From contig JBNGIO010005880.1 of assembly GCA_049999805.1 (NCBI GenBank), forward strand, positions 1-40,390: DNA of 40,390 nucleotides. The letters are read 5' to 3'. This document shows, piece by piece, positions 4,675 to 33,174 of the stretch. Each line of letters starts with the position of its first letter. The stretch's first letter is position 1. The notes beneath the pieces were generated by a model. It was not told the DNA's origin, did not search any database, and saw nothing but the letters and a program-made list of their open reading frames with translations. The position numbers and the translations under genes are program-made. Source of the DNA: Folioceros fuciformis. Taxonomy: Eukaryota.

Positions 4675-7600
4675 ATGGAGCGAACAATGAAGAAGGGGGC
4701 GGGGGGCTCGGGTTGTAGTGTGCTTCTTAACCCAGTCCTGCCTGCCCGCTGTGTGAATCCTGGGTACAAGAGACTCAAGGTGCCACCCTGGGGGAGAAAG
4801 CCTGGTGGGTTAGAATCCTCACTGTGCAGTCTGGGTCAGCGTGTGGGTCACAGAGACCCTGGTGCAGGAGCAGGGAGTGAAAGGTAACTGGGCTTCTCTT
4901 CTGGACCGGGTCGACTTGCGGAGAAAAGCTACGTGAAAGTGGATGTCTTGATGCTCGTAGATTCTTGGACTTGGCAGGCTACGGACTATCGGCAGGGACG
5001 TTTGTGGGGTGGAGAGGTCACACAAAGAGGCAAGTCCGCTGGCTTCCCTGGACATCATGGACCAGCAGGGAAGGGTGCCTTCAGTGCAGGTTTACAAGGA
5101 CCTGCTGCAGGCTTGCATGAAAAACAAGGACCTGGTTCAGGCTAAGCAAGTACATGCCCATTTGGAACGGCATGGGTTGGAATCTCACAGGTACTTGGGG
5201 GACCTTGTTGTGACCACGCTGGTGAATTGTGGGAGGCTTGAGGATGGGCTTCCTTTGTTTCACAAGTTGTCTCACCGGACAGTTTATTCTTGGACAGCTA
5301 TCATATCAGGGTACAGTAATGCTGGGCAAAGTCGGGAGGCACTTCTGTGCTACGAGCAGATGCTGCGAGAAGGTGTGCAACCGAACAACCATACTCTTGC
5401 CAGCTTACTCAAAGTATGCAGCAGGTTGGGAGATCTGGAACAGGGCAAGCGTATTCATGCTGATGTTCTCAGACTTGGGTTGGAGTCCGACATGTTCGTC
5501 ACTAACACTCTGCTAAGTATGTACGCAAAATGTGGGAGCATCATTGATGCTCGACAGGTGTTTGATCGTTTGTCGGGCCGCAATGTGGTATCCTGGAATG
5601 CCATGCTCGCAGCATATGCTCAACAGGACCAAGGGGAGAAGGCATTGGAGCTTTATGCTGAAATGCGAGCTCAAGGCGTAGAGCCCACTGCTCGGACCTT
5701 TGTGAGCGTCGTACAAGCTTGTGGCAACATTGCTGACAAGGAAGAAAGTAGACTTGATTGTGGAAGGGCGCTAAAAGTGGACTCACTAGAACGGGGTAAG
5801 AAAATACACATGGAAGCCGTTCTATGGGGATGCGAACCAGATCCATTTCTTGGCAATAGTCTGGTCACTATGTATGCAAAGTGTGGGAGCATAAGTGATG
5901 CTCAAGAGGCGTTCAACAAATTGTCTCAGCCCAATGAAGTTTCGTGGAATGCGCTTCTTGATGCATATCTTCAGCAGAAGGAAGGAGAGAAGGTATTGCA
6001 AATGTATGCGCATATGCAAGATGCAGGCATCAGGCCTGAGGCTCGAACCTTCGTCATTGTACTCCAAGCATGCAGCACCCTAGCAGAAAAGGAGAAGGGT
6101 GCCATGAAGGGTGGAAATAATGTCAAGGTGGAGACACTGAGAGTTGTCAGGGAAATCCATTCCAAAGCTGCTAGATGTGGTTATGAAACGGATCAGTTTG
6201 TTGCTAACGCAATGCTCACTGCATATGCCAAGTGTGGTAGTACTGTCCTCGCTAGGCGTGTGTTTGACAGATTGCCCCACCACGATGTGGTGTCCTGGAC
6301 TGCAATGATTGCAGCTTATGTTGAGCAGGGGCAGGGAGAGAAAGGTTTGCAGATATATTCCAAGATGCAACAGCAAGGCATCAGACCAGATGCTCGGGTA
6401 TTTGTTAGTGCTCTTCAAGCCTGTGGCGCCTTTGCGGAACAGGAGGAAAGCGCTCCTGTGGATGGGAAAAACTTGAAAGTGGAGGCACTGTGCAAAGGGC
6501 AGGAGGTACACGCTGAAGCTGTTGCCAGGGGTTGTGAATCGGATATGTTTGTCGCTAGTGCTTTGATTAGCATGTATGCCAAGTGTGGCAGCATCATCAA
6601 CTCAGAATGGGTTTTCCGCAGATTATTGCGTGTCAATTCAGTGCTATGGAATACGATGCTCGCAGCATATTCTCAGAATGATGAATGTAAGATGGCCTTG
6701 TGGGCTTATTCACAAATGCAGGAGGAAGGCATCAATCTGGAGGCCCGGACCTTTGTTAGTGCGCTTCAAGCATGTAGTACCCTTGCAGAGAAGGAGGAGA
6801 GTCTACTGGTCAATGGGCAGAGAGTGAAGGTAGAGTCGCTGAGAACTGGGAAGGCTGTTCATGGTGATGCCACAGTTGCAGGTTTTAAATCGGACATGTT
6901 TGTCGGTAGCACCTTGGTCAGGATGTATGCAAAATGTGGGAGCCTCTATGATGCACGTCATGTATTTGACAGATTGCTGCACCGAGATGTGGTTTCCTGG
7001 AATGCGATGATTGCAGCATATGCTCAGCAGGATGAAGGAGAAGAAGCGTTGCATCTTTATGGCGAGATGATGGAGGATGGGGTCACTCCTGAGGCTCGCA
7101 CTCTCGTCTGTGCGCTTCAGGCCTGTAACACCCTTGCAGATAACGAAGACGGGTCATTTGATAGGGGAAAACGGGTGAAAGCGAATTCACTGCTGAAAGG
7201 AATGGAGATTCATGCAGAGGCTGTTCGCCAGGGATTGGAGACAGACTTTTTTGTAGGCAGCACATTAGTGAGCATGTACGCAAAGTGTGGCAGCATTGAG
7301 GAAGCATGGCATGTGTTCGAAGGATTGCCCGACCGGCATGTGGTGTCCTGGAATGCAATGATTGCAGCATACGCTGGGGACGACCAAGCTGAGAAGGCTT
7401 TGCAGGTCTACAGTCAAATGCAAGAGGAAGGTGTGACACCGGACGAGGCAACATTCATCTCTGTACTCGCAGCGTGTGGCAGCGTTGGAGCGCTGCATAC
7501 TTGTGTCCACGCCCATCAGAGCATTGTGCAGAGGGGCCTACAAACTCAGCATGTCATCGCAAACAGCCTCATCCATGCCTACGGCAAATGCGGGAGCATG

Positions 7601-8455
7601 ATGGACGCCCGGTGCGTGTTTGACTCACTCTCTGACCCTGATGTGGTGTCATGGACTTCACTCATAGCAGGACATTCCCGACAAGGAGACCATGAGACAA
7701 GCACTCTGCTCTTACGCACCATGAAGGACGCTGGTGTGAGGCCAAACCAAGTCACGTTTCTGGCTCTCCTTTCTGCCTGTGGGCATGCCGGGATGGTGGA
7801 ACGAGGGCTGCAATACTTCGAAAGCATGACCAAGGACCATGGCATTCCGGCTGACTTGGAGCACTACGTGTGCATGATAGACCTTCTTGGCCGTGCAGGA
7901 CGTCTGAGAGAAGCCGAAGATTTGCTATCCAGAATGCCGATGCCCCCTACGTTGCCCGTGTGGTTGTCCTTGTTGGGTGCCTGTCGAAAGCACAGCCTGG
8001 TAGGGCTAGCAAGACGAGCTTTCGATCAGGCAGTCCTTCTAGAGCCTGGGAAAGCAGCAGCATATGGGCTGATGTCCAACATCTACGCGGACGCAGGCAT
8101 GTGGGAGCATGTGAAGGAAATAGATGCGCTGAGGCAGGAAGCAGGTGCATGGAAGAAACCAGGGCAGAGTTGGGTCGAGCATGAACAAAAGGTCCACACT
8201 TTTCTTGTGGAAGATCGCAGACATGCACAACAAGCTCAGCTGTACGCATTGCTAAGCCGGCTGAGATCAGAGATGGAGGGAGCTGGCTCGGCTGTCTCAC
8301 TTCACTGTACCAGTCATCCAAGGATAGTCCCCGCTTCACTCTCAGCCCAAGTTCGAGACCCAGGACATCAACCTCGTCTGGCTCCCTTGTCGGCCCAAGT
8401 TGGTGCTCCGTCATGGTTTTCTTCTCCTCGGGTGTGGATAGGAATATGGCCGTAA
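4675..8455 (+). CDS. PLS-class PPR protein, E1-E2-E+ (PG box KKPGQSWVE; DYW truncated, no catalytic HxE/CxxC)
   Basis: ORF 5009-8455 has P-L-S triplets, P2-L2-S2 (TFLALLSACGHAG...HYVCMIDLLGRAG), E1/E2 and a PG box, then an unrelated tail. Putative transit-peptide exon 4675-4883 joins in frame through a GT(4884)..AG(4977) intron; this 5' exon is inferred. Confidence 0.92.
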
Positions 8456-9490: not shown

Positions 9491-10388
9491 AAGAGTTGCT
9501 CACTCTATTTGTTGTAGGTTATGTTGATGAAAGTTTTGGACTTATCATCAACAAAGAAATAATGATCCACCTTTGCATTTCAAGAATGTGAGATCGGTTC
9601 TTCATTTGTATTGGTATTCGATAACCATGGAGTTTAGGTATCGTAAGGTTCACTAATCTTATGGATTCTGTTTGTGGAGGGCACTGATATATTGGTTAGG
9701 TTATGAAGGAACCTTTCATTGTCCCTTGTGTGTTCAATAAGGGGATGCTTTGTAAAGGAATGAAGCACTTTCTCGGTAATGGTAAAGAGTTAGAGTGTAG
9801 TAATGTCTTGCTGATTATACTATTTGTGTTGTTTGAGCTTGCAAGAGTCCAACAATTAGTCTACTCTACTACAATTCTTCTTATTCTTAAGCAAGAAATT
9901 GGGTTCTGGTTGGAAAAGCCTATCCGCTTTCCGATCAATTGCTGGGATGAATTCATTTTGTTTAGCCCTCTACTCTGTCATGCTTTTTAATTTCAGTATT
10001 GATTGAATCACAATCATTTATTTTTATTTAACTCCGCGCTAGTCTCTATGGAGCCCCCCGATGTGCATGGAGATGTCCTTGGAGCCACCTTGGCAAGGGC
10101 TGCTCGATGATTGCTATGGTGCTGACATCTCCAGTCTGCAAACATGTGCTACCTTTCGGTCACAACATCGTGAATTGTGTGAAATGTGACCGATCTGACG
10201 TCGGAGTGTCCCATTCCTTACAGTACTTCAATAGGAGAGTTCCATAGTTCTTTGCTCTGGTGTCTTAGCCATCTTTTTCGAACGAAATGGTGAAGTTGTG
10301 ACTGCTGATCGTGGAATGGTGGTGGACATGGGCCTAGACATCCTGCCGCCCCTGGGTGAATAGTTAGTGGTGCCTTGCGGAACTGAGT

Positions 10389-13300
10389 ATGGCTACGGTA
10401 TGGCAGTGGGATCCGGTATGGAGGGAACAAAGTGGTGGGTGTACGAGGATTCTACGACGAGCTCCCGCTCACTGCACTTCGAGGATTCAATTGCTGGGAA
10501 ACAATCGAGCCTGCAGGTGCAACAGTGTAAGGAGCATTGCATCTCCACTTCCGACAGAAAGTGTGGGTGGGGAAGGACTTTACAGCGGTGGTGGTCGCCA
10601 GGAGCAGGAGCGTTTGTGGAAACAACTTTTTCTGGAGCCTACCATGTGGTGGGACAACAGACGAGACAGGAAGAGCTCCCGTTCGCCTGACTTCCGGCGT
10701 AAGGGTTCTGGGGAGGTCCTCTGGTTAAACAGCACTTACAAGCCTGCTTGGGTGGATGAGCAGCTTGTGTCTTTGGATATGCAGATGGGTCATGGTGCTT
10801 CTCCTTCCAAATCCAACTCCACGAATAACGGGCCTGAGTCTGGAAGGCGTTCGGGATCGGAAATGGGTGTCGTAACGCCTGGAACCGTAAGCATGTTATG
10901 TCAGCAGGGGAAGCTCACTGAGGCCGTTGGAGCCCTGGAATCCCTGGCTCAGACAGACTATGTTATTTCCCAGTCTCTGTTGTACACTGTGCTGAAGTTG
11001 TGTGCAGCCAATAAGGATCTGGTTGTGGGACGACGAGTTCATGACATCACTGTCAAACTTGGGTACGAGTCGGATGCGTACTTGGGGAACCATATTTTGC
11101 GCATGTATGCATCTGGAGGTAGGTTACAGGAGGCGATGGATGTGTTCACCAGGGTGGGGAAACCAAATGCCTACGTGTGGGGTTCCATAATTTCCGCACA
11201 TGCTAAACATGGTAAGCCCACCAAGGCCATACAATTATACCATGAGATGCGTAGGTCGGGTGTGAAGGCGGATGCTCACGTCTTTGTAGCTGCCCTGCAA
11301 GCTTGTGCATTTTCCGCTGACTTGGAATCTGGCAGAAAAGTGCACGATGATGTTTTGCACAGTGACGTTCCTCCTAACTTGTTTGTTGGTACCTGCTTGG
11401 TGGACATGTATGCAAAATGTGGCCAACTGGAAGATGCACGCCTGGCATTTGACAGCTTGCCCAAAAAAAATGTAGTGGCTTGGACGGCCCTCATCGCTGG
11501 ATATACACAGCAAGGGCTCGGTCAAGAGGCACTTGTTCTGTATGAACAAATGGAGCAGGAAGGCCTGTTTGTGGCTAACGATGTTACTTTTGCTTGCCTT
11601 CTCAAGGCTTGTGCAAGCACCGGTGCCATAAAGAAGGGTAGGCAGCTACACTCACGGATTGTTGAAAGTCGACAGCTGGATAACATAGTGTTGGGCAACT
11701 GCCTGGTGGACATGTATGCAAAATGTGGCGAACTGAAAGATGCACTCCAGGTTTTCGAAAGCTTGGCGAGAAAGGATGTGGTGACTTGGACAGCGCTGAT
11801 TGCTGGGTATGCACAGCAAGGGCTCGGGCAAGAGGCGCTTGTCGTGTATGGAAAAATGGAGCAAGAGGGCCTGAGTGTGGCTGACCATGTTACTTTTGCT
11901 TGCCTTCTGAAGGCTTGTGCTAGCACTGGTGCCTTACAGATGGGCAAGCAGTTGCATTCACAGATTGTGGAACGAGGACAGCTGGATAACCTTCTGGTGG
12001 GCAACGGCCTGGTTGACATGTATGCAAAATGTGGGGAACTGGAATGTGCACGCCAGGTATTTGAAAGCTTGACCAACAAGGATGTGGTAACATGGACGGC
12101 GCTGATCGCCGGGAATGCACAGCAAGGGCGCAGTCGGGAGGCGCTTGTTCTGTACGGACAAATGAAGGAGGAGGGCTTTATTGTTCCGAACCATATAACA
12201 TTTGCTTGCCTTCTGAAGGCCTGTGCAAGCGCTGACGCCTTACCGATGGGCAGGCAGCTGCACTCACAGATTGTGGAGCGAGGACAGTTAGACAACTTGC
12301 AGGTGGGGAACTGCCTGGTGGACATGTATGCGAAATGTGGGGAACTAGAATGTGCGCGCCAGGTTTTTGAAAGCCTGGCCTCAAAGGATGTGGTGACATG
12401 GACGGCCTTGATTGCTGGGTATGCTCAGCAGGGGCTGGGCGAAGAGGCACTTGTCCTGTATGGGCAGATGGGGCAGGAGGGCTTGATTCTGGCCAACGAT
12501 GTTACTTTTGCTTGCCTTCTGAAGGCCTGTGCAAGCACTGGTGCCTTGCAGAATGGCAGGCAACTGCACTCACTGATTGTTGAAAGAGGACAGCTGGACA
12601 ACACAGTGTTGGGTACCTGCCTGGTGGACATGTACGTAAAGTGCGGTGAAATGGAGGATGCACGCCAGGTTTTTGACGGGTTGGCCTCCAAGGACGTGGT
12701 GACTTGGAATGCGCTGATTGCTGGCTACGCAAATCATGGCCTTGGTCAAGAGGCGCTGGCGGTGTACGCACAAATGGAGCAGGAGGGCCTGACTTTGGCT
12801 GACCATGTTACGTTTGCTTGCCTCCTGAATGCCTGTGCTAGCGCTGGTGCCTTACAAATGGGCAGGCATCTGCACTTGCAGATTGTCGAAAGGGGCCAGC
12901 TAGATAACGTACTGGTGGGCAACTGCTTGGTGGACATGTATTCAAAATGTGGCGCACTGGAAGATGCACGCCAGGTTTTCAACAGCCTGTCCACGAAGGA
13001 TGTGGTGACATGGAATGCCCTCATAGCCGGGTGTGGTAGCTGTGATGAAGGTCACAACGCACTCACTTGTTTCGAGGGGATGTTGGCCGCCGGCATTCAG
13101 CCCACTGAGGTTACCTTCACCTGCCTTTTAGTAGCATGCAGTCACGGGGGACTGGTGCAAGAGGGTCGCAAGCACTTCAATTCCATGGCTGAAACGTATG
13201 GCATCAAACCTACTCTAGAGCACTACGTCTGCATGATTGATCTGCTTGGACGTGCAGGCCATCTAGAGGAGGCAGAGAACATGCTATTGTCATCCGAGAG

Positions 13301-13916
13301 CCAAACTAATGTTGTGGGGTTGACGTCTTTGCTGACTGCCTGCAAAAGTTACGGTGACGTCGAGAGGGCGTCGCGGTGTTTTGCAATCCTTGTCAGGCTG
13401 GACCCCCAGAGGGCGTCCCCTTACGTGCTCATGGCCAATGCCTACGCCGACGCGGGTATGTGGACCGATGTGGACAGGATTGAGAAACAGAGAACGGCAG
13501 CAGGAGCTAACAAGAAGCCTGCTGTAGCGGGCATCGAAGTGAAGAAGCAGGTACATACTTTCGTGGTGGGAGACAACAGAGAAGATCTGGCTGTCAAGGT
13601 AGAGAGCACCAGTGCTCGTGTGAGGCAGGAAGGCGGGCACGTACCACAGACAAAGCTGGTGTTGAAGTCCATGTCGGAGAAGGGAAAGGAAGATGCGCTT
13701 TGCGGCCATGCGGAGAAGCTAGCTCTTGCGTTTGGTCTGTTGAACACACCCAGTGGCGCACCCCTCCTGGTAACCAAAAATCTGCGCATGTGCAGTGACT
13801 GCCACAGTTCCACGGCCATCATGTCAAGGATCGAAAGGAGAGACATAGTCGTAAGGGACGGGTACCGCGTGCATCGATTCACAGGCGGCCATTGCAGCTG
13901 TAGTGGTCGACCGTGA
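10389..13916 (+). CDS. PLS-class PPR protein with DYW:KP (GRP-type) domain, candidate organellar U-to-C RNA editing factor; N-terminal OSB-PDF-like motif
   Basis: Intronless 1175-aa ORF: transit-like N-terminus, WWDNR..PDF..LWL..PAWV motif, L-(S-P-L)x6-S-P2-L2-S2, E1, E2, KKPAVAGIEV, CGHAEKLA, RMCSDCH, HRFTGGHCSCSGRP. Confidence 0.95.
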   Translation: MATVWQWDPVWREQSGGCTRILRRAPAHCTSRIQLLGNNRACRCNSVRSIASPLPTESVGGEGLYSGGGRQEQERLWKQLFLEPTMWWDNRRDRKSSRSPDFRRKGSGEVLWLNSTYKPAWVDEQLVSLDMQMGHGASPSKSNSTNNGPESGRRSGSEMGVVTPGTVSMLCQQGKLTEAVGALESLAQTDYVISQSLLYTVLKLCAANKDLVVGRRVHDITVKLGYESDAYLGNHILRMYASGGRLQEAMDVFTRVGKPNAYVWGSIISAHAKHGKPTKAIQLYHEMRRSGVKADAHVFVAALQACAFSADLESGRKVHDDVLHSDVPPNLFVGTCLVDMYAKCGQLEDARLAFDSLPKKNVVAWTALIAGYTQQGLGQEALVLYEQMEQEGLFVANDVTFACLLKACASTGAIKKGRQLHSRIVESRQLDNIVLGNCLVDMYAKCGELKDALQVFESLARKDVVTWTALIAGYAQQGLGQEALVVYGKMEQEGLSVADHVTFACLLKACASTGALQMGKQLHSQIVERGQLDNLLVGNGLVDMYAKCGELECARQVFESLTNKDVVTWTALIAGNAQQGRSREALVLYGQMKEEGFIVPNHITFACLLKACASADALPMGRQLHSQIVERGQLDNLQVGNCLVDMYAKCGELECARQVFESLASKDVVTWTALIAGYAQQGLGEEALVLYGQMGQEGLILANDVTFACLLKACASTGALQNGRQLHSLIVERGQLDNTVLGTCLVDMYVKCGEMEDARQVFDGLASKDVVTWNALIAGYANHGLGQEALAVYAQMEQEGLTLADHVTFACLLNACASAGALQMGRHLHLQIVERGQLDNVLVGNCLVDMYSKCGALEDARQVFNSLSTKDVVTWNALIAGCGSCDEGHNALTCFEGMLAAGIQPTEVTFTCLLVACSHGGLVQEGRKHFNSMAETYGIKPTLEHYVCMIDLLGRAGHLEEAENMLLSSESQTNVVGLTSLLTACKSYGDVERASRCFAILVRLDPQRASPYVLMANAYADAGMWTDVDRIEKQRTAAGANKKPAVAGIEVKKQVHTFVVGDNREDLAVKVESTSARVRQEGGHVPQTKLVLKSMSEKGKEDALCGHAEKLALAFGLLNTPSGAPLLVTKNLRMCSDCHSSTAIMSRIERRDIVVRDGYRVHRFTGGHCSCSGRP
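11380..13030 (+). repeat. 306-bp (102-aa S-P-L triplet) coding tandem repeat, ~5.5 units
   Basis: The GACATGTA..AAA.TG.GG anchor recurs near 11403, 11709, 12015, 12321, 12627 and 12933. Confidence 0.9.
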
Positions 13917-14039
13917 GAGTGGTAAACAACCAGCCAAAGCTCGTTGCAGTGTTTTTTTGTCTGTGATCTATGTCTACCCCTGGCATTCTGGAAACAGCGA
14001 GCATTCTCAAAAATTCTTTTTCAGTGTGGCTTTTTCCCA

Positions 14040-14335
14040 CGGAGTCTCAGTAACTTCCTGAGTCTTCTCGTCGTGCATTTGTTGTTTGTATCATTTGTTT
14101 CTCAAAGTCTCTTCCTCGTTTCTCGATGTCTGCCTGTTAGATGGTCTATCACTTCTCTCTGTCCCTTCCTCGTTTCTCAATGTCTCCATCTTGTTTCTCA
14201 ATGGTAGATGGGTGTATCATTTCTCTCTGTCCCTTCCTTTTTTCTTTGCAATGTTAGATGTGCGTATCGTTTCTTCTTTTCCTGATAGCTTGCCTATTGT
14301 TTCTCAATGTTTCTTCGTGATAGACTGTCTATCAT
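14040..14335. repeat. Degenerate CT-rich low-complexity repeat
   Basis: Recurrent GTTTCTCAATG, TTCTCTCTGTCCCTTCCT and TAGATG(G/T) words between the PPR stop codon and the PPR fragment. Confidence 0.55.
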
Positions 14336-14336
14336 T

Positions 14337-14945
14337 TCAACTGGAGGATGCACGGCACGTCAGGTGTTGGAAAGCTTGGCTTCAAACGATGTGGTGACAT
14401 GGACGGCTCTGGGCAAGGGACCAGGGCTGGGGAAGGCGGCTCTTTGTTGTTTTCGGACAAATGGAGCAGGAGGGTCTGATTCTGACTGACCATGCTACTT
14501 TTGCTTGCCTTCTTGAGGCGTGTGCCTTGCAGATGAGCAGGCATCGGCACTCACGGATTATCGGAAGAGGCCAGCTGGATAACGTACTGTTAGGCAACTG
14601 CCCGGCGGACTTGTACTCAAAATGTGGTGCGTTGGAAGATGCACTCCGGGTTTCTGGCTGCTGGTCTGTGAAGGATGTGGTGACATGGAATTCCCTGATA
14701 GCTGGGTGTGGTGCCTGTGACAAAGGCCACAGAGCACTATCTTGTTTTGAGGAGATGGTATCTCTGGTGTTCAGCCTGGTGATGTTACGTTTACTTGCCT
14801 TTTGGTAGCATGCAGTCATGAGAGACTGGTGAACCCCCCGGGGGTCGCAAGCACTTCAATTCTATGGCTGAAGAACCGAAGCAACGATGTGTGACGTCTT
14901 TGCTGCTGGTTGCCTGCAGAAGTCCCGTGGATATGGAGGGGACAA
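14337..14945 (+). pseudogene. Decayed partial duplicate of the 3' PPR array (S-P-L-S-P2-L2...E1) of the adjacent GRP-type gene
   Basis: QLEDAR../ARQVLESLASNDVVTWTAL/MEQEGLILTDHATFACLL...DVVTWNSLIAGCGACDKGH in shifting frames. Contains a GCACG duplication, several deletions and an E1 remnant (TGACGTCTTTGCTG..GCCTGC); no start codon and no DYW. Confidence 0.88.
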
Positions 14946-18143: not shown

Positions 18144-18243
18144 NNNNNNNNNNNNNNNNNNNNNNNNNNNNNNNNNNNNNNNNNNNNNNNNNNNNNNNNN
18201 NNNNNNNNNNNNNNNNNNNNNNNNNNNNNNNNNNNNNNNNNNN
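18144..18243. other. Assembly gap (100 N)
   Basis: Run of N; true length unknown. Confidence 0.99.
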
Positions 18244-19403: not shown

Positions 19404-21827
19404 TTAAGAACTCACCTGCGTCCAGCTTCCTTGATATGGGGTATGCTTGTCATCCCCAACTAGAAAGCTATGCACCAGCCCCCCTTCGTCTGTCCACCAG
19501 CTCTGACCTGGCTGCTTCCTTGCTCTGAGTCTTGTTCTCATCACCTCCAACTCCAATGCCTGCTCCCACATCCGGGCACCCTTGTATATGTTCGACATGA
19601 GCACATATGCTGCGGCATCTTCCTTGTCTAGCTTCACTGCTTCATTGAACGCATGGCGTCCCACCTCCACACTTCCCCACTTTTGACAAGCGCCCAACAG
19701 GGTGTGCCAAACTGAAGCATTCGGCCAAACAGGCATGGATCTCACAAAAGCTAGCGCCTCATCCAGTTTTCCTGCACGGCCCAGGAGATCCACCATGCAC
19801 GCATAGTGCTCAACGGTTGCTTCAATGCCATACTGTCCACTCATCGCCTCGAAGTGCTCCCACCCCTTCTCCACTAGACCTACATGACTGCATACTCTTA
19901 GTACACTAAGAAATGTGATGCCGTCTGGCCGAACACCGTACTCTCTCATTCTCCGAACCAAGTCGAAGACTACTTCACTCTCTCCTTGAGAAGTGTAGCC
20001 TGCAATCAGCGCGCTCCAGGCGACCATATCTCTTTTCGAAGACGCATCAAACACCGCCTGGGCCTCAACCATGCTCCCGGACTTCCCGTACATGTGTATC
20101 AAACTACCAACAAACACGTCAGCTTGAAAGCCTTGCTTTACTATCTGCTGATGTAGCTGCCTTCCGAGATACAACGCAGCCACATTAGCACACGCCTGCA
20201 GGAGGCACAAAAACGTCACCGAATCAGCTGCAACCATGCCTTCTTGCATAGCCCTATAGAGAGAAAGGGCTTCCTGCCCCAAGCCCTGCTGGGAATACCC
20301 TGCTAATATGGCATTCCATGTCACTACATTTTTCTGACCAAGTCCATCAAACAGTTTCCGGGCATCCTCCAAGCTCCCACACTTGGCATACATGTTCACC
20401 AAACTGTTGGCTACCATCACATCAGCTTCATGTCCTTGTTCTCTGATCTGCGTATGAAGTTGTTTGCCTTTCTCCAATGCTCGAGTGCCCACTCGAGTGC
20501 ATGCCTGCAAGAGGCACACAAATGTGATGGAATCAGGGACAGCGATTCCCTCTTCTAACATAGCACAGTGAAGGTCAAGGGCTTCTTGACCCATTCCCTG
20601 CTGGGAGTATCCTGCTATCATCGCAGTCCAAGTCACCACATCTTTGTGATCAAGCGAATCAAACAATTCCCTTGCATCTTCCATACTGCCACACTTTGCA
20701 TACATGTGCACCAAACTGTTTGCTACAAAACTGTCAGCTTCATGTCCCTGTTTCCTTATTTGCAAATGAAGATCCTTTCCCTTCTCCAATGCCATTTTGC
20801 CCACGCTTGTGCACGCCTGCAGGAGGCACACAAATGTGACAGCATTGGGTACAGCAATGCCTTCCTCTTCCATGGCACTATAAAGACGGAGGGCTTCCTG
20901 CCCCATGCCCTGCTTAGAATATCCTGCTATCATGGCAGTCCAGGTCACAACATTTTTTTCAGCGAGTTTATCAAACACACTATGTGCATCCTCCAAGCTG
21001 CCACATTTAGCATACATGTCCACCAAGCAACTCGAAACGAATACATCCGGGTCGATGCCACTGGCCAAAACATCTGCATGCACCTGCTGGCCAGCTTTCA
21101 AGTCCGAGGCCTTTGCACAAGCCTGAAGAGCTGCCACAAATACATGACCGTCTGGCTTTACATTGGACCTGCGCATCCGATGATACAGTTGTATGGCCTG
21201 CTTGCCTTGTCCGTGTTCAACGTGAGCAGAGATTATGGCTGACCAGGTGAAGGCATCTGCCTCAATAATCGCTTCAAACACATTCATCGCGTCTTGCAAC
21301 CTGCCATGAGAAGCATACATCCGCAGGATGTGGAAGCCCACGAACGTATCCGAATGGTATCCCTTTTGAACCGCGAAAGCATGAACGCGGCTGCCCAGAA
21401 CAAGATCCTGATTGATTAGACATCCCTTCAAAATAGCGAGGAAGAGGGATTTGGAAATATAACGGAATGTCCGCACCAGGACTTCCATAGCCTCAAGAGC
21501 CTCCGTGAGATGCCCCTCGCGACATAGCCTTCTTACAACCTCACCTGTTATGCCCCAATCTTGAACTGCAGACCTGGTAGGGTGAGGATCATACCCTACG
21601 CTACCATGGGAGGCACAACGACCTATCCTCGAATCTGAAACACCAAGGTGTGCATGTCTCCACGTTGGATTGCGGAAGTTGATATCCCGGGACTGTGTAG
21701 CCCAGAGGCGAAGTGAGTCACGACCCCTCTCCTTTAGCCTGTTCTGCCACCCAAGTGGGTGCCGACCCTCGATGGAAGCCTCAACCAGATGTCCTGCTAA
21801 GGTGCTGCACCCGTTGGCTCCTGGAAA
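19404..21827 (-). CDS. PLS-class PPR protein, E1-E2 plus WW-type PG box (KQPGQSWW), DYW truncated; 5' end uncertain or disrupted
   Basis: ORF 19404-21488 has PLS triplets, P2-L2-S2 and E motifs. The frame stays open upstream to 21827 (VVRRLCREGHLTEALEAM, like the neighbours' MLCQQGKLTEAVGAL) but has no earlier ATG. A donor-like CAG|GTGAGT at 19416/19415 suggests a further 3' exon. Confidence 0.88.
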   Translation of the reverse strand, partial: FPGANGCSTLAGHLVEASIEGRHPLGWQNRLKERGRDSLRLWATQSRDINFRNPTWRHAHLGVSDSRIGRCASHGSVGYDPHPTRSAVQDWGITGEVVRRLCREGHLTEALEAMEVLVRTFRYISKSLFLAILKGCLINQDLVLGSRVHAFAVQKGYHSDTFVGFHILRMYASHGRLQDAMNVFEAIIEADAFTWSAIISAHVEHGQGKQAIQLYHRMRRSNVKPDGHVFVAALQACAKASDLKAGQQVHADVLASGIDPDVFVSSCLVDMYAKCGSLEDAHSVFDKLAEKNVVTWTAMIAGYSKQGMGQEALRLYSAMEEEGIAVPNAVTFVCLLQACTSVGKMALEKGKDLHLQIRKQGHEADSFVANSLVHMYAKCGSMEDARELFDSLDHKDVVTWTAMIAGYSQQGMGQEALDLHCAMLEEGIAVPDSITFVCLLQACTRVGTRALEKGKQLHTQIREQGHEADVMVANSLVNMYAKCGSLEDARKLFDGLGQKNVVTWNAILAGYSQQGLGQEALSLYRAMQEGMVAADSVTFLCLLQACANVAALYLGRQLHQQIVKQGFQADVFVGSLIHMYGKSGSMVEAQAVFDASSKRDMVAWSALIAGYTSQGESEVVFDLVRRMREYGVRPDGITFLSVLRVCSHVGLVEKGWEHFEAMSGQYGIEATVEHYACMVDLLGRAGKLDEALAFVRSMPVWPNASVWHTLLGACQKWGSVEVGRHAFNEAVKLDKEDAAAYVLMSNIYKGARMWEQALELEVMRTRLRARKQPGQSWWTDEGGLVHSFLVGDDKHTPYQGSWTQVSS

Positions 21828-22267
21828 TCAGGCGGCCGGAAGCTCTCCGTACCTCTAGCCCACCACCCATAACTCCCAGAGCATTCCGTGAGATCTTGGA
21901 TGCGAATAGGCATCCAGTCGTTGCCGAGGACAACCTGGGATAGCATGGCCTTGTTCTTGAGGCGACCAAGCTTGGATGTCATGCGCGACACACTGCAACC
22001 TCAGCCACCAACGCACAGCCAGGTAAGCACTTCAAGCCATAGTTGGCGGACTGTAGTTGCGGCAAATAGCTGCAGCCTGTGAGGGTGGTGGGTATGGTGC
22101 TTGGTACACCACCAAGCGGGGGCCATCTCTTTGCGTTCAAGACTCCGCCTTGTAGCTCAGGTGCCTTTGCTATCTGTAAAAAAAAGGCGTCTGCACTGTC
22201 CTGCTTGAGGGTGGTGCAGTCATGCAACCCACTGTCCGCCTCAACAACCGAATGCTTTGCCTGCAAT

Positions 22268-24883
22268 ATGGCAACAATATGGGCTCCGGATTCATTGTGG
22301 ACCCAGCATATTGGTGGCTGGACCGGGATTGTACGACGAGCTCCTGCTCACCTTGACTTAGCTTCGAGTCAATTGCTAGGAAAGAATCAAGCCTCCAGAT
22401 GCAACAGTGTAAGGAGCACTGCACCTCTACCTCCGAGAAAAAGTGTGGGTGGGAAAGAATTTCCCGGCGATGCTGGTCACCAGGATCAGGATCGCTTGTG
22501 GGAACACCTTTTTCTGGAGCCTAACATGTGGTGGGACAACAGGCGAGACAAGAAGAGCTCCCGTGCGCCAGACTTTCGGCGTAAGGGGTCCGGTGAGGTC
22601 CTCTGCTTAAACAGCACGTTCAAGCCAGCTTGGGTGGATGAGCAGCTTGTGTCTTTGGATATACAGATGGGTCATGGTAACTCTCCTTCCAAGTCCGGCT
22701 CCCCGGATAAGGATAAACCTGAGCCTGGCAGGCAATCAGGATCGGAGATGGGCGTCGTAAAAGCTGTAAGCGTGGTTACACTATGTGAGCAGGGGAGGCT
22801 TACCGAGGCCGTGGGGGCCCTGGAATCTCTGGCGAAGACGGATTCTGCTATTTCCCAGTCTCTGTTTTACACGGTCCTGAAACTGTGTGCAGCTAAGAAG
22901 GATCTGGTTGCAGGGCAACGAGTTCATGACCTCACTGTGAAACTTGGGTACGAATTGGATGCATACCTGGGGAATCATATATTGCGCATGTATGCAGCTG
23001 GAGGTAGGCTAAAGGAAGCCATGGATGTGCTCATTAGGGTTGCCAAACCGAATGCTTTCATGTGGTTTTCCATAATCTCTGCATATGCGAAGCATGGGAA
23101 GTACAAGGTGGCCATCCAACTGTACCATGAGATGCGTAGGTCAGACGTGAAGGCGGATGCCCACGTCTTTGCAGCTGCCCTTCAAGCCTGTGCATCTGCC
23201 GCAGACTTGGAATCTGGTAGAAAAGTGCACTCTGATGTGTTGGACAGTGGCATTCCTCCCAACATGTTTGTTGGAAACTGCCTGGTGGACATGTATGCAA
23301 AATGTGGCGAACTGGAAGATGCACGACAGGCCTTTGACAGCTTGGCCAGAAAGGATGTGGTGACATGGACAGCCCTGATTGCCGGGTATGCACAGCAAGG
23401 GCTCGGCCAGGAGGCACTTGTACTATATGGAGAAATGGAACAAGAGGGCCTGTTTGCGGCTAACGATGTGACTTTCGCTTGCCTTTTGAAGGCCTGTGCG
23501 AGCACTGGTGCCATTCAGAAGGGCAGGCAGTTGCACTCACAGATTGTCGAAAGGGGACAGCTGAATAACATAGTGTTGGGCAATTGCCTGGTAGACATGT
23601 ATGCAAAATGTGGTGAACTGGGAGATGCACGCCAGGTTTTTAACAGCTTGGCCACAAAGGATGTGGTGACGTGGACGGCGCTGATTGCTGGGTATGCCCA
23701 GCAAGGGCTGGGGCATGAGGCTATTGTTTTGTATGAGCAAATGGAGCAGGAGGGTCTGATTGTGGCCAACCATGTGACTTTTGCTTGCCTTCTGAAGGCC
23801 TGTGCAAGCGCTGGTGCCTTACAGATAGGAAGGCATCTGCATTCACAGATTGTAGAAAGAGGACAGCTGGGTGACATCCTGGTCGGTAACGGCCTGGTGG
23901 ACATGTATGCAAAATGTGGCGAAATGGAAGATGCACGGCAGGTTTTTGACAGCTTAGCCACGAAGGATGTGGTGACATGGACGGCTCTCATATCTGGCTT
24001 TGGTACTTGTGATGAAAGTCGCAACGCACTTGCATGTTTTGAAGAGATGCTAATAGCTGGTGTCCGGCCCAATGATGCTACTTTCACTTGCCTTTTAGCA
24101 GCATGCAGTCATGAGGGACTGGTGAACGAGGGTCGCAGGCACTTCAATACCATGGTCCAAGAGTATGGCATAAAACCTACCACTGACCATTACGCTTGCA
24201 TGATTGAGCTTCTTGGGCGTGCAGGCCATTTAGATGAGGCGGAGAACATGCTCTTGTCGTGTGAGGGCCGAAGTAACATTGTGGGCTTGACCTCTTTGCT
24301 GAATGCCTGCAAATGTCACGGGGATATAGAGAGAGCGACGAGGTGTTTCCAAAGCCTGGTTAGACTGGATCCTCAGTATGCGCCCGCTTATGTGCTGATG
24401 GCCAATGCGTATGCAGATGCAGGTAGGCGGGCTGAGGTAGAGAGGATCGAAACGCTGAGAAGGGCAGCAGGAGCGTACAAGAAACCTGCAGTGGCGGGCA
24501 TTGAGGTGAACACGCAGGTACATACATTTGTAGTTGGAGAAAATAGAGATGGTGTCGGGGTCAAGGTAGAGAGCATGAATGCACGTCTGAAGCAGGAAGG
24601 GGGACACGTTCCCCACACAAAGTTGGTGTTAAAGCCCTTGTCCGAGACGGAAAAGGAAGATGCACTTTGTGGGCACGCTGAGAAGCTAGCCCTGGCGTTT
24701 GGTCTGTTGAACACTCCGAGTGGCACACCTCTGCTGGTAACAAAGAATCTGCGCATGTGTAGTGACTGCCATAGTTCCACCGAGGTCATGTCAAGGGTTG
24801 AAAAGAGAGGCATTGTAGTAAGGGATGGGTACCGTGTGCATCGATTCGAAGGTGGTCGGTGCAGTTGCAAAGGTCGACCGTAG
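22268..24883 (+). CDS. PLS-class PPR protein with DYW:KP (GRP-type) domain, paralogue of 10389-13916; N-terminal OSB-PDF-like motif
   Basis: ATG 22268 (MATIW) matches the paralogue's MATVW. L-(S-P-L)x3-S-P2-L2-S2, E1, E2, KKPAVAGIEV, CGHAEKLA, RMCSDCH, HRFEGGRCSCKGRP. Confidence 0.95.
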   Translation: MATIWAPDSLWTQHIGGWTGIVRRAPAHLDLASSQLLGKNQASRCNSVRSTAPLPPRKSVGGKEFPGDAGHQDQDRLWEHLFLEPNMWWDNRRDKKSSRAPDFRRKGSGEVLCLNSTFKPAWVDEQLVSLDIQMGHGNSPSKSGSPDKDKPEPGRQSGSEMGVVKAVSVVTLCEQGRLTEAVGALESLAKTDSAISQSLFYTVLKLCAAKKDLVAGQRVHDLTVKLGYELDAYLGNHILRMYAAGGRLKEAMDVLIRVAKPNAFMWFSIISAYAKHGKYKVAIQLYHEMRRSDVKADAHVFAAALQACASAADLESGRKVHSDVLDSGIPPNMFVGNCLVDMYAKCGELEDARQAFDSLARKDVVTWTALIAGYAQQGLGQEALVLYGEMEQEGLFAANDVTFACLLKACASTGAIQKGRQLHSQIVERGQLNNIVLGNCLVDMYAKCGELGDARQVFNSLATKDVVTWTALIAGYAQQGLGHEAIVLYEQMEQEGLIVANHVTFACLLKACASAGALQIGRHLHSQIVERGQLGDILVGNGLVDMYAKCGEMEDARQVFDSLATKDVVTWTALISGFGTCDESRNALACFEEMLIAGVRPNDATFTCLLAACSHEGLVNEGRRHFNTMVQEYGIKPTTDHYACMIELLGRAGHLDEAENMLLSCEGRSNIVGLTSLLNACKCHGDIERATRCFQSLVRLDPQYAPAYVLMANAYADAGRRAEVERIETLRRAAGAYKKPAVAGIEVNTQVHTFVVGENRDGVGVKVESMNARLKQEGGHVPHTKLVLKPLSETEKEDALCGHAEKLALAFGLLNTPSGTPLLVTKNLRMCSDCHSSTEVMSRVEKRGIVVRDGYRVHRFEGGRCSCKGRP

Positions 24884-25955
24884 GCAGTCGAGAACCGACT
24901 AGCTAATGCTCAATCAGCAGGTCAAATGCGACACAGGGGAGGGTGTCAGGATTTTCTTACCCAAACTGCGCCATCGTGAATTGCCCTGGCAAATGTGGCG
25001 GAGGCAATGAACACTAGAGTGAAGTCCCCAGCAAAATTCGTTCCGAGTTCAAGAATGAGGCGAAGGGGAATGCTGGACGACTCGTCGCGGCTTCCGAAGC
25101 ACAGGTTCCTCAATGGGCAATTGACTAGTTCAGCCGCCCATGGAGCCAGCTTGGGTGCCGAGAAGATGGGGCCCGTGCTGACCACAACCTCCACAGTAGC
25201 TACAGCTGCTATGCAACCTCGGCTGACGAACTTGGCTCCGATCCATAGGCTCAACACGACGGATTGCTACAACGCAAACAGCTGCAAATTTCATCTCCTG
25301 ACAAGCGGACGAGTCTATGTAACGGCTTCTTATGTGGAAGGTCCAGGCTCCGCGCTCCGCACCTTGTCTGATGACTGGAAGCAAAACGAGATTTGTCTCC
25401 TCCTTGACAAAACACTCGTTAAAAACTAGGTCCCTTTCCGAGCTTCTGGTCGTTCCATCCTTTCGATGCGCAGATGTTCGAAGCTGATTGTAGTGAGCCA
25501 GCCAGCATCGGAAAAATCTCCAGGGGTGTGCAACGCGTGTAGAACTTTGCACACTCTGACATCTGTATTGCGGGGATTCGAACTTCACAGGCCTCTCATG
25601 TGTCCAGGTCCCACCCGTCCCTTTATGTCGCTTCCCGGGCAGGTACCTGATGTAAGGACGCATCTCCCCTGGACAGGTCAACCACCAGGAATCACTGCGG
25701 ATGCCTCCCCTATCAGCGGCCAACCACATGAGCCACACCGCACGACACAGACAACTCTCCAGTTCCTTCACACCAGCTTGCACGCACGTGTTGCCCTGCT
25801 GATTCCATCGCCTAACATCCCTTTGACTGATGTTCAGCCGGCCGTAAGACCAAACGGTATAGACCCTCCTGGTAAATAGCTGTATGCCTCTACAAACCAA
25901 CCGGGAAGCTATCAGTCTTCAGGTGCGGGGAGGAGAAACTGGCTCGGTCGAGGAG

Positions 25956-28343
25956 ATGTCGAAGCACAGCGAGAAGGTAGCGGCGTATCTGACCCACCTC
26001 TTCTTGCTCCTCGCCATCCTCTTCCCGACACTATGTTCGACCCAGAACATGTCCTCAACGCAGAACAGCACCAGCTTCAGGGTCACCAACTTCACCTCCT
26101 CCGCCGTCCTGGTGTCAGGGGACTCGGCAGTGCAACCCGACGGCTCCCTGCTGATGACGGTGAACTCGAGCGGCGTCTCAGGCCCGTCTCTCAAATCCCG
26201 CGCCGTCTACTCCACCCCGGTCCAGTTCGCGGACGCGGTCTCCGGCACTGCGGCCTCCTTCAACACCTCCTTCACCTTCGCCATTCTCTCCGCCAACGGC
26301 ACCGAGAAGGGCGACGGCATGACCTTCATCATCACTCCCGAGCCCGGGGTCCCCAAATCCATCTACAGCGCGGGAGGTAACCTGGCTCTCTACGACGTCC
26401 TGCAGTACAACGTCTCCAACTCCAGCATCCATGTGGTGGCCGTGGAATTTGACACCTTCTCCAGCCCGCCCGACCCAGTGGGCGACCACGTCGGAGTGGA
26501 CATCAACTCCTACATCTCTGCCAAGGCGGAAGTCCTCCCTCCAGGCCTCGCCCCCCTCAATACCTCCTCCACCAGGCAACGCCTCACGGCATGGATCGAC
26601 TACGATGCGGTGGCCGGGCAGCTAGACGTCTTCCTCGCCCACGCCCCCTCCCAGAAGGGAGCCGCCACTCAAGTCCTCTCGTACGGTCCACTCGCCATCT
26701 CCCAGTACGTGACCCCCAACTCCTATGTCGGCTTCACCGCCGCCACCGGGTCCTTCTTCGAGCTCCACGCCGTGTTCGACTGGAACTTCTCCAGCAGCCT
26801 GGTGCCCAATCCGCTCTTGTCTTCCCCGCCTCTCTTTCCTCCTGCGCCGGCTCCGGCTCCGGCTCCAGCCCCAGGTCTGGGGCTACTGGGCGGTGTGAAG
26901 TCCGGGAAATCTTCGCACACCGGCCTGATTGCTGGTGTGGTCGTGGGAGGTGTGGGAGCTCTGCTTTTGGTGCTGCTGGCGCTTGTGGTGCTGTTCCGGA
27001 GGAGGAGGTCGCTGGAGAGGAGGAAGTTAATTCCGGGAGGGGACGCGGGGCAGGATCTGTCGAGCTCGTGGATGGAGTTGTATGCTGCGGATGTGAATTT
27101 CGGGCCGCGCAGGTTCTCGCACGCCGAAGTAAGCTCCGCCACGAACCACTTCGAGCAGAGTGCTTTGCTGGGGCAGGGCGGATTCGGGAGCGTGTACAAG
27201 GGGGTCATGGCTGGTACGGTGGCGGGGACGACGGTGGATGTGGCCGTGAAGAGGGTGTCCAGGACGTCGAGGCAGGGAGAAAGGGAATTCCGAGCGGAGG
27301 TGCTGAGCATCGGGAGGCTGCGGCACAGGAACTTGGTGCCGCTCGTTGGATGGTGCCATGACCAGGGGGAGCTGCTGTTGTTGTACGAGCTCATGCCCAA
27401 CGGAAGCCTAGACAGATGGCTCTACCGCAGCGGCACTCACCACCACATTGAAGGGTATCCGGAATCGGATACGTCTGGCAAGGCGCAGGTGCTGCCGTGG
27501 GGAGACAGGTACAATGTCCTGTGCGGGGTTGCATCTGCCATCGTCTACCTGCACGTGGAGTGGGAGAAATGCATCGTCCATCGAGACATCAAGGCCAGCA
27601 ATGTGATGCTGGACGCTCAGATGAATGCTAGGTTAGGGGACTTTGGGCTGGCCAGACTCACGGACCATCGGTACGGGGACGGCGACCACTCCGCTACCTC
27701 CACGGCGGTCGCGGGAACCCGGGGTTATCTCGCACCGGAGTACGCGGTATCGGGGAAGTCGACTCCCGAGTCGGACGTGTTCAGCTTCGGGGTTTTGGCG
27801 TTGTCTGTGGCGACCGGTCGCCGGCCGTATGAGCCGGTAGGAGAGGACGAGCAGTATCTGGTGGACTGGGTGTGGAGTTGGCAGGAGTGTCATAGGCTGG
27901 AGGACGTGGTGGATGCGAGGCTGGAGGGAGATTTTAATGAGGAGCAGTTGCTGCGGGTTTTGAAGGTTGGCTTGTTGTGCACACATCCGGATCCCAAGGC
28001 CCGGCTTCCCAGCCAGGTGTTATTCCAGATGCTCAAGGGTGATAGTGAGCTGCCGTCGTTGCCGGCCTCTAGGCCTGTGGCAATTTATGTGAGCGAGTTT
28101 ACCGTGCCGTCTGTGGATTCTAATTTGTCGGGTTTGGAGAGCAACGTGGCGGAGAAGAAGGCGGGGTCCGGAGATGTGCAGTATCCGGAGCCGGTTGAGA
28201 CGAGCCACACGGAGTCCTATCCCAGTGATTCCAGCCTCGCGTATCGCAGTGACGCGGGAAGTCAGCCGGATAGTGAGAAGCATCCGGGTGGTAATGCCGG
28301 GCGCGGGGCTGGCAGCGTAGGTTCTTTTGTCCAACCTAGATAG
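25956..28343 (+). CDS. L-type (legume) lectin receptor-like kinase, intronless
   Basis: Signal peptide from ATG 25956; lectin motifs SFNTSFTF, GDGMTF, VAVEFDT, DHVGVDIN, AWIDYD, YVGFTAATG; Pro/Ala linker; TM helix followed by RRRR; kinase motifs GQGGFGSVYKG, VAVKR, HRDIKASN, DFGLAR, GTRGYLAPE, DVFSFG. Confidence 0.96.
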   Translation: MSKHSEKVAAYLTHLFLLLAILFPTLCSTQNMSSTQNSTSFRVTNFTSSAVLVSGDSAVQPDGSLLMTVNSSGVSGPSLKSRAVYSTPVQFADAVSGTAASFNTSFTFAILSANGTEKGDGMTFIITPEPGVPKSIYSAGGNLALYDVLQYNVSNSSIHVVAVEFDTFSSPPDPVGDHVGVDINSYISAKAEVLPPGLAPLNTSSTRQRLTAWIDYDAVAGQLDVFLAHAPSQKGAATQVLSYGPLAISQYVTPNSYVGFTAATGSFFELHAVFDWNFSSSLVPNPLLSSPPLFPPAPAPAPAPAPGLGLLGGVKSGKSSHTGLIAGVVVGGVGALLLVLLALVVLFRRRRSLERRKLIPGGDAGQDLSSSWMELYAADVNFGPRRFSHAEVSSATNHFEQSALLGQGGFGSVYKGVMAGTVAGTTVDVAVKRVSRTSRQGEREFRAEVLSIGRLRHRNLVPLVGWCHDQGELLLLYELMPNGSLDRWLYRSGTHHHIEGYPESDTSGKAQVLPWGDRYNVLCGVASAIVYLHVEWEKCIVHRDIKASNVMLDAQMNARLGDFGLARLTDHRYGDGDHSATSTAVAGTRGYLAPEYAVSGKSTPESDVFSFGVLALSVATGRRPYEPVGEDEQYLVDWVWSWQECHRLEDVVDARLEGDFNEEQLLRVLKVGLLCTHPDPKARLPSQVLFQMLKGDSELPSLPASRPVAIYVSEFTVPSVDSNLSGLESNVAEKKAGSGDVQYPEPVETSHTESYPSDSSLAYRSDAGSQPDSEKHPGGNAGRGAGSVGSFVQPR

Positions 28344-33074: not shown

Positions 33075-33174
33075 NNNNNNNNNNNNNNNNNNNNNNNNNN
33101 NNNNNNNNNNNNNNNNNNNNNNNNNNNNNNNNNNNNNNNNNNNNNNNNNNNNNNNNNNNNNNNNNNNNNNNNNN
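33075..33174. other. Assembly gap (100 N)
   Basis: Run of N just upstream of the BTA1 coding start. Confidence 0.99.

Follow-up and report, generated by a model that had tools for sequence, protein, structure and literature searches.

An N-terminal PDF domain of organellar single-stranded DNA-binding protein type in a candidate U-to-C RNA editing factor of Folioceros fuciformis

Analysis of a 40,390-nucleotide (nt) stretch of Folioceros fuciformis DNA (NCBI GenBank assembly GCA_049999805.1, contig JBNGIO010005880.1, positions 1 to 40,390 of the forward strand; hereafter the window) revealed that one of its genes, designated here gene 1, encodes a pentatricopeptide repeat (PPR) protein of the PLS class in which a PDF motif, as found in plant organellar single-stranded DNA-binding (OSB) proteins, precedes the repeat array, with an E motif and a KP-type DYW domain coming after the array. 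Taken together, the identity of the motif and the architecture of the protein can be regarded as practically certain. Our best explanation as a whole, to which we assign a rough probability of 0.45, is that the PDF domain would act as a tether or accessory of PLS editing factors, of the type that binds single-stranded DNA (ssDNA).

Gene 1 spans positions 10389..13916 of the forward strand as an uninterrupted open reading frame (ORF) of 1175 amino acids (aa). Its product displays, in this order and on this strand, a presequence-like N-terminus including the start codon (10389..10610, residues 1-74), the core of the PDF motif (10611..10766, residues 75-126, 52 aa by translation), a flexible linker rich in Ser, Gly and Asn (10785..10877, residues 133-163 approximately), a PLS-class PPR array recognized by Pfam (10878..13349, approximately residues 164-987), an E motif (13350..13538, residues 988-1050; PF20431, E 5.2e-14), and, together with the stop codon, a KP-type DYW domain of the GRP subgroup (13515..13916, residues 1043-1175). 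An earlier reading of this DNA made from the letters alone (the sequence-only reading) had quoted a 52-aa motif at 10611-10766, which agrees letter for letter with the translation, and had placed it between a transit-like peptide and the PPR array with a Ser/Gly linker after it; the same order is found in the single ORF. The combination proposed there, that is, a PDF motif, a PPR array and a DYW:KP domain in one protein, is borne out by the Pfam PPR, E and DYW matches and by the KP hallmarks. Pfam-A searches with the protein returned PPR_2 (E 5.5e-107), PPR (E 4.4e-104) and PPR_1 (E 9.3e-62), as well as PF14432 (DYW_deaminase) at residues 1083-1173 (E 6.5e-32), and they find the succession of PPR array, E motif and DYW domain that characterizes PLS-class PPR editing factors. 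An in-frame stop lies 10 codons upstream of the ATG at 10389, with no other ATG in between, and this ATG constitutes the real start of the gene because of this stop and because the likeness to a second paralogue in the window, described below, exists only from the shared Met onward; later Met codons are located at residues 86 and 131, and initiation at either would truncate the PDF motif. The first 60 residues contain 8 Lys or Arg and 3 Asp or Glu.

Regarding the C-terminal domain, KP at residue 1043 replaces PG, HAE is located at 1107 and CSDCH at 1135, and the protein ends in GRP; counted from KP 1043, K1130 occupies position 88 of the 133-aa domain. According to the published accounts, DYW:KP domains are distinct from their DYW:PG counterparts in PG box, active-site region and C-terminal triplet, and hornwort DYW:KP proteins comprise DRH and GRP variants (PMC9478123). 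KP domains are reported to measure 132-133 aa, with Lys88 essential for U-to-C editing (PMC11845758), and the designer GRP-type proteins KP2 and KP3 are reported to perform U-to-C editing in Escherichia coli at about 26% and 22%, respectively (PMC9478123). The features of the GRP subgroup of DYW:KP domains (KP, HxE...CxxC, a length of 132-133 aa, Lys88 and a GRP end) are all found in gene 1, and both PDF-bearing proteins of the window end in GRP. On these sequence features, the label of candidate U-to-C editor is a fair one for gene 1. The GRP end, together with the close packing of genes in the window, would point to a hornwort as the source.

The assignment of the N-terminal segment to the PDF motif was supported by several searches. 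A phmmer query of 81 aa (10569-10811) against 1,835,955,588 representative proteins produced 627 matches at E<=1e-3, of which 165 reached E<=1e-10 and 18 reached E<=1e-30. Ten matches were looked up by exact sequence, and OSB source names were found on five of them, with E-values from 3.0e-13 to 1.6e-23: OSB1 of Populus nigra (1.6e-23), OSB3 of Euphorbia peplus (1.3e-20), OSB3 of Anthurium amnicola (5.3e-17), an OSB1-like protein of Drosera capensis (5.4e-15) and OSB2 of Andrographis paniculata (3.0e-13); the remaining five were hypothetical, unnamed or nameless. In an alignment of 15 motifs (the two of the window, eight linked to PPR tracts and five from named OSBs), the columns W77, D89, R91, D101, F102, L111 and P119 (numbered as in the gene 1 protein) are invariant, and W87, W88, K94, P100, K105, W121 and V122 are conserved in at least 90% of the motifs. 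The profile hidden Markov model (HMM) derived from this alignment matched gene 1 at 10590-10799 of the forward strand (E 1.4e-34), and it identified 1550 proteins at E<=1e-3 among 8000 scored candidates; the best 120 of these 1550 include about 45 OSB-named proteins, by a hand count of shortened names, and 16 with the Pfam SSB family PF00436. As a control for composition, which is all that shuffling addresses, the real 52 aa matched 250 of 255 local proteins at E<1e-3, window rows aside, and shuffled versions matched in 0 of 30 cases; the local set consisted of earlier matches, and the whole-library E-values are the real test. The segment thus has what defines an OSB-type PDF motif, namely some 50 residues with Pro-Asp-Phe and flanking W, WWDNR, LW and WV elements. 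No Pfam-A family matched residues 1-187 of gene 1 at E<=1, which implies that Pfam contains no model for the PDF motif. Word-indexed homology searches with the 81-aa segment and with region 61-141 of the whole protein yielded no match either, and both blanks reflect a limit of the method, since the 15-motif profile later found 1550 proteins. As judged by homology, residues 68-132 approximately are a genuine PDF domain related by descent to the PDF motif of OSBs; the sequence-only reading had named the segment an OSB PDF motif, and the phmmer matches to named OSB1, OSB2 and OSB3, the conserved signature columns, the failure of shuffled sequences and the OSB-named proteins listed by the profile are in agreement with it.

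The predicted structure of this segment was obtained with AlphaFold2 from two inputs, the 81-aa segment with a 15-row alignment and residues 1-350 with a 9-row alignment. The 81-aa model (mean predicted local distance difference test score, pLDDT, 83.9; predicted template modelling score, pTM, 0.71) consists of a helix, three short strands and a helix. In the 350-aa model, the PDF region reaches pLDDT values of 79-90 and repeats this secondary structure, with helices at residues 68-82 and 120-132 and strands at 87-89 and 102-104; residues 1-67 and, within the linker, residues 136-148 and 150-159 remain below 50, and the first PPR helices begin at about residue 164. Both models suggest that the PDF motif, with a modelled fold covering residues 68-132, is a small independent alpha/beta domain on a flexible tether. 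A Foldseek comparison of the 81-aa model with the PDB gave no match (best E 9.1), and in a VIA-align comparison with 48,161 chains none stood out (best Z 3.8).

A second copy of this arrangement is present in the window. When its six-frame translation was scanned with the HMM, exactly two sites were obtained, and three other rows had E>=1.5. The second site lies in a tandem paralogue of like architecture on the forward strand, gene 2 (22268..24883, 871 aa from the shared Met), with its PDF core at 22493-22648 by translation and its profile match at 22469-22684 (E 1.7e-33); Pfam recognizes PPRs, an E motif and a DYW domain in the product, which carries the C-terminal GRP. Pairwise likeness between the paralogues starts at the shared Met (22268 in the second gene); an upstream ORF extension of 58 codons (22094-22267, forward strand) has no counterpart in gene 1, and no blastn match between the paralogues was found in the flanks 600 nt upstream and 600 nt downstream of both ORFs. 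In the PPR array of gene 1, Tandem Repeats Finder detected a 306-nt tandem unit at 11393-13014 (5.3 copies, 79% matches), which is also present in gene 2 at 23276-23985 (2.3 copies), and the pairwise alignment shows a 306-residue gap between the paralogues that equals three PLS triplets. Since the 306-nt unit represents one PLS triplet and the gap three, the length of the array would shift by gain or loss of units.

The ratio of non-synonymous to synonymous substitution rates (dN/dS; Nei-Gojobori method) between the two window paralogues was 0.93 for the presequence (residues 1-74), 0.17 for the PDF motif (residues 75-126; 45 identical residues out of 52, with 9 synonymous differences and 7 that are non-synonymous), 0.42 for the linker (residues 132-165), 0.17 for the PPR tract (residues 166-552) and 0.11 for the DYW domain (residues 1081-1175). 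With the reservation that counts within the motif are small, the comparison shows a PDF motif under a constraint like that on the catalytic and RNA-reading parts of the protein and unlike that on the presequence. This pattern is hard to reconcile with a PDF domain that plays no part in the mature editor, whether removed together with the presequence, serving for import only, or persisting as a decaying relic of a fusion. Such a fate would suit a motif that begins merely 74 residues from the start, as well as some database relatives in which it lies 6-40 residues from the annotated start. Apart from the ratios of 0.17 in the motif and 0.93 in the presequence, it is disfavored by OSB signature residues conserved from gene 1 to angiosperm and algal proteins, by a PDF region modelled as confidently folded next to a presequence that is not, and by relatives with two or three copies over more than 250 residues, and we consider it very improbable. 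Retention of a functional PDF domain in the mature protein is, in our estimation, quite likely.

The motif-coding sequence was also traced in four public runs, using contigs mapped to 10000-14300 of the window at >=90% likeness. Position 10669, within the motif, was covered by 27, 57, 56 and 51 contigs, which are not equivalent to gene counts; this points to a motif-coding sequence that is multi-copy in the organisms of the four runs. In one run, a 478-nt contig is identical to 10179-10656; at a low depth, this contig extends over non-coding sequence, and its origin may well be DNA.

The architecture of gene 1 proved not to be private to the window. Among the best 150 of the 627 phmmer matches, 8 also matched the window PPR tract at E<=1e-5 (P0005, P0070, P0090, P0098, P0124, P0128, P0145 and P0150), and a Pfam scan of 10 long phmmer matches detected PPRs in 6; of the other four, two gave weak SSB matches that fell short of the curated cut-off, one contained a kinesin motor, and one gave nothing. 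PPR Pfam families were present in 6 of the best 120 of the 1550 profile matches, 5 of them new and from Diphasiastrum complanatum (P0200, P0203, P0205, P0209 and P0225). Beyond the window, PDF+PPR proteins hence amount to at least 13 database clusters, with one to three PDF motifs always located N-terminal to the PPR array, and their named sources are Adiantum capillus-veneris (2), Ceratopteris richardii, Pteridium aquilinum, Selaginella and Diphasiastrum complanatum (5). Both searches list the best-scoring matches and favor multi-copy proteins, so that mosses, liverworts or seed plants may also have PDF+PPR proteins. The C-terminal ends within this group are diverse. P0145 has a DYW domain 69% identical to that of gene 1, with a KP box and a GRP end, and is the only one of the listed relatives that shares this end; P0209 combines three PDF motifs with a PG box, HSE as the centre and a GDYW end, corresponding to a canonical DYW:PG protein of the C-to-U type; and P0200, P0203, P0205, P0225, P0090, P0124, P0150 and P0005, some of which are fragments, have E-type or DYW-less ends. 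These comparisons place gene 1 in a wider family of predicted PDF+PLS-PPR proteins with E, DYW:PG or DYW:KP ends.

The PDF fusion was considered as a mark of KP-type editors and rejected, given the DYW:PG end of P0209 and the E-type ends of several relatives. The suggestion of the sequence-only reading that the PDF motif is specially tied to U-to-C editing fails for the same architectures; as it is also present on E-type and DYW:PG proteins, the PDF domain is not a reverse-editing device. A motif tree (75 PDF motifs, 69 columns, quick IQ-TREE), whose rows were a selection (every qualifying motif from 15 PPR proteins and from 16 OSB-like proteins picked by hand), had little resolution, 8 of its 69 inner branches being starred. 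PPR-linked motifs clustered in it, with 3 label changes, compared to a mean of 22.3 after shuffling, and 0 of 500 shuffles were as low. It is doubtful, in our view, that the PDF+PLS-PPR architecture is an invention restricted to the hornwort, lycophyte and fern lineages, with PDF domains that would anchor editors to nucleoid ssDNA, such as transcription bubbles or R-loops, and couple editing to transcription; reverse editing has been named for the same clades, namely hornworts, some lycophytes and ferns (PMC4915041). Editors anchored in this way would be a built-in equivalent of the trans-acting helpers known from seed plants.

With regard to the PDF motif itself, further observations were made in the searches. 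The best 150 phmmer matches hold 410 PDF stretches, with one copy in 26 proteins, two in 59, three in 34, four in 16, five in 8 and six to twelve in 7; some arrays are very long, as in P0002 of Kingdonia uniflora (1160 aa), with 12 stretches. PDF motifs also occur with a kinesin motor in P0048 of Coptis chinensis (1526 aa) and in P0040 of Striga hermonthica (1063 aa), named 'interactor of constitutive active ROPs'; these may represent additional domain combinations or fused gene models. Multi-PDF proteins labelled as green algal were P0010, P0019 and P0234 (Sanguina aurantia, a PRCOL identifier and Ulva), in agreement with a review statement that the motif dates back to green algae (PMC4166229).

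In the mechanism that we propose, the PDF domain would stay on the mature protein after organelle import and would bind single-stranded nucleic acid irrespective of sequence, with the ssDNA-type binding known from OSBs. The domain would hold the editing factor on the nucleoid or on transcribed DNA, or otherwise close to its substrate; the PPR array would read the RNA target, and the DYW:KP domain would make the U-to-C change. The PDF domain would, in these terms, serve the PLS editing factors of these lineages as a general accessory. As described for OSBs, the motif comprises about 50 residues, is named for Pro-Asp-Phe, and is found, once or several times, on the C-terminal side of an OB-like fold (PMC6963530; PMC4166229; PMC6451138). 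It is reported to be sufficient for ssDNA binding in AtOSB1 (PMC6963530), PDF motifs are held responsible for ssDNA binding, with AtOSB1 and AtOSB2 preferring ssDNA over double-stranded DNA or RNA (PMC4166229), and the PDF domains, not the OB-fold, are described as the parts that bind ssDNA (PMC6451138). Because the OSB reports favor ssDNA, a tether to ssDNA or to the nucleoid is the leading reading of the mechanism, which we put forward as tentative.

Several points weigh against this tether. The resolution of the motif tree is too low to establish that the fusion arose once. The OB-like fold context of OSBs is absent from gene 1, with no Pfam SSB match at E<=1 in the 1175 aa. A PPR array runs N-to-C along its RNA in the 5'-to-3' direction, the DYW domain acting immediately 3' of the footprint; a PDF domain at the N-terminus would therefore be the part farthest from both the edited base and a transcribing polymerase, so that a loose tether fits better than a direct catalytic role. 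Moreover, the reported preference for ssDNA over RNA concerns whole Arabidopsis OSB proteins (PMC4166229), and the function of the PDF domain within PDF+PPR proteins is one that we infer.

The position of the domain also bears on its ligand. A flexible linker joins the PDF domain directly to an RNA-binding array at its 5'-proximal end, and the domain might bind RNA instead, providing sequence-unspecific affinity 5' of the PPR footprint or melting local RNA structure, as an intrinsic aid to target binding. The presence of PDF motifs on PLS proteins of every C-terminal class is what would be expected of a general binding aid, and the conserved residues W77, W87, W88, R91, K94, F102, K105 and W121 are presumably of the kind that contacts single strands. 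The reported choice of ssDNA over RNA by AtOSB1 and AtOSB2 (PMC4166229) points the other way, and we judge RNA binding to be unlikely, although it is the most credible of the alternatives to an ssDNA-type tether.

PDF motifs are usually arrayed, with at least two copies in 124 of the best 150 phmmer matches and a maximum of 12, and AtOSB2 has been reported as a tetramer (PMC6963530). Both observations would suit a PDF domain that works as a protein contact or oligomerization module, recruiting the editor to DNA coated with OSBs or to further proteins that bear PDF motifs, or causing it to multimerize. Conversely, the window proteins have a single PDF copy, and the motif is credited in the OSB accounts with ssDNA binding, not with oligomerization (PMC6963530; PMC4166229; PMC6451138), which makes a role of this kind rather improbable. 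We give far less credence to a PDF domain that would steer the DYW:KP enzyme toward organellar ssDNA, making DNA and not RNA the molecule changed: all that speaks for it is that an ssDNA-type motif and a base-modifying domain occur together, no observation of this analysis points to DNA editing, the same motif is found on E-type proteins without a catalytic domain, and the target is described as chosen on RNA by the PPR array in this family (PMC9478123).

Other features of the window include short ORFs directly downstream of gene 1 (14382-14819, both strands), one of which (14461-14808, forward strand) encodes a PPR-like piece resembling a PLS unit of gene 1 and probably represents what is left of a further copy, as a pseudogene. 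At 5057-8455 (forward strand) and 19404-21488 (reverse strand), the window contains two more PLS-PPR genes, which have an E motif and no PDF match; their ORFs end shortly after a PG-box-like stretch, the DYW domain being missing, broken or on another exon, and the latter gene contains a 312-nt tandem unit at 20191-21026. An 819-aa ORF at 25884-28343 (forward strand) combines legume-lectin and protein kinase domains and corresponds to a lectin receptor-like kinase. Runs of 100 N at 18144-18243 and 33075-33174 mark assembly gaps.

Literature searches combining PDF or OSB with PPR, DYW, U-to-C editing and hornworts, lycophytes or ferns retrieved, in the texts covered, no study that links the PDF motif with PPR proteins, and an earlier mention elsewhere is possible; of five papers in which the term PDF motif appears, three deal with OSBs and none with PPR proteins. 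The same searches likewise located no functional study of the fusion, none having been known to the sequence-only reading. By text search, neither OSB nor PDF appears in the available text of a 2026 survey of editing-factor domain fusions (PMC13386178), nor does OSB in that of the Anthoceros angustus genome paper (PMC7027989). To judge from these records, the PDF module seems to have been described so far only in OSBs. The accepted plan of PLS-PPR proteins consists of a targeting peptide, the repeat array and a C-terminal E or DYW region, and designer U-to-C and C-to-U editors follow it. A conserved N-terminal OSB-type domain that is under selection and, as modelled, folds independently would equip the natural editing factors of three or more plant lineages with a new component, and it suggests a physical link of editing factors to organellar DNA or nucleoids. 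It also shows the PDF motif to be a mobile module, not private to OSBs, and on present evidence does not explain reverse editing as such.

Compared with known systems, the role that we propose for the PDF domain is, speculatively, analogous to that of the MORF/RIP, ORRM and OZ accessory factors of PLS-PPR editors (PMC13386178), which are described as separate proteins or other domains and with which no sequence relation was seen. With Arabidopsis OSBs, gene 1 shares the PDF motif of about 50-60 residues and its signature residues, and its protein is probably organelle-targeted. In contrast to OSBs, it lacks an SSB-like OB-fold, its PDF motif is single and N-terminal, not C-terminal in one to three or more copies, and this motif shares its polypeptide with a PPR array that reads RNA and with a DYW domain; the gene 1 protein is not an OSB, since no PF00436 match was obtained (E<=1) and residues 1-67 are modelled as disordered. 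The hornwort GRP-type PPR-DYW:KP proteins that served as KP2 and KP3 templates (PMC9478123; PMC11845758) display, as described, the same PLS array, E motif and 133-aa KP domain with HxE, CxxC, Lys88 and GRP; in the available text of those accounts, no domain N-terminal to the PPR array is mentioned, and the designer proteins carry Trx/His tags there (PMC9478123). Counterparts of gene 1 in overall plan are the database PDF+PLS-PPR proteins, annotated only as hypothetical or PPR proteins (for example KAI5076972.1 and KAI5061374.1 of Adiantum, KAH7429238.1 of Ceratopteris, XP_024517303.1 of Selaginella, and the five of Diphasiastrum complanatum), which likewise have between one and three PDF motifs at the N-terminus and then a PLS array; most of them end as E-type proteins and P0209 as DYW:PG, whereas gene 1 ends in a KP/GRP domain.

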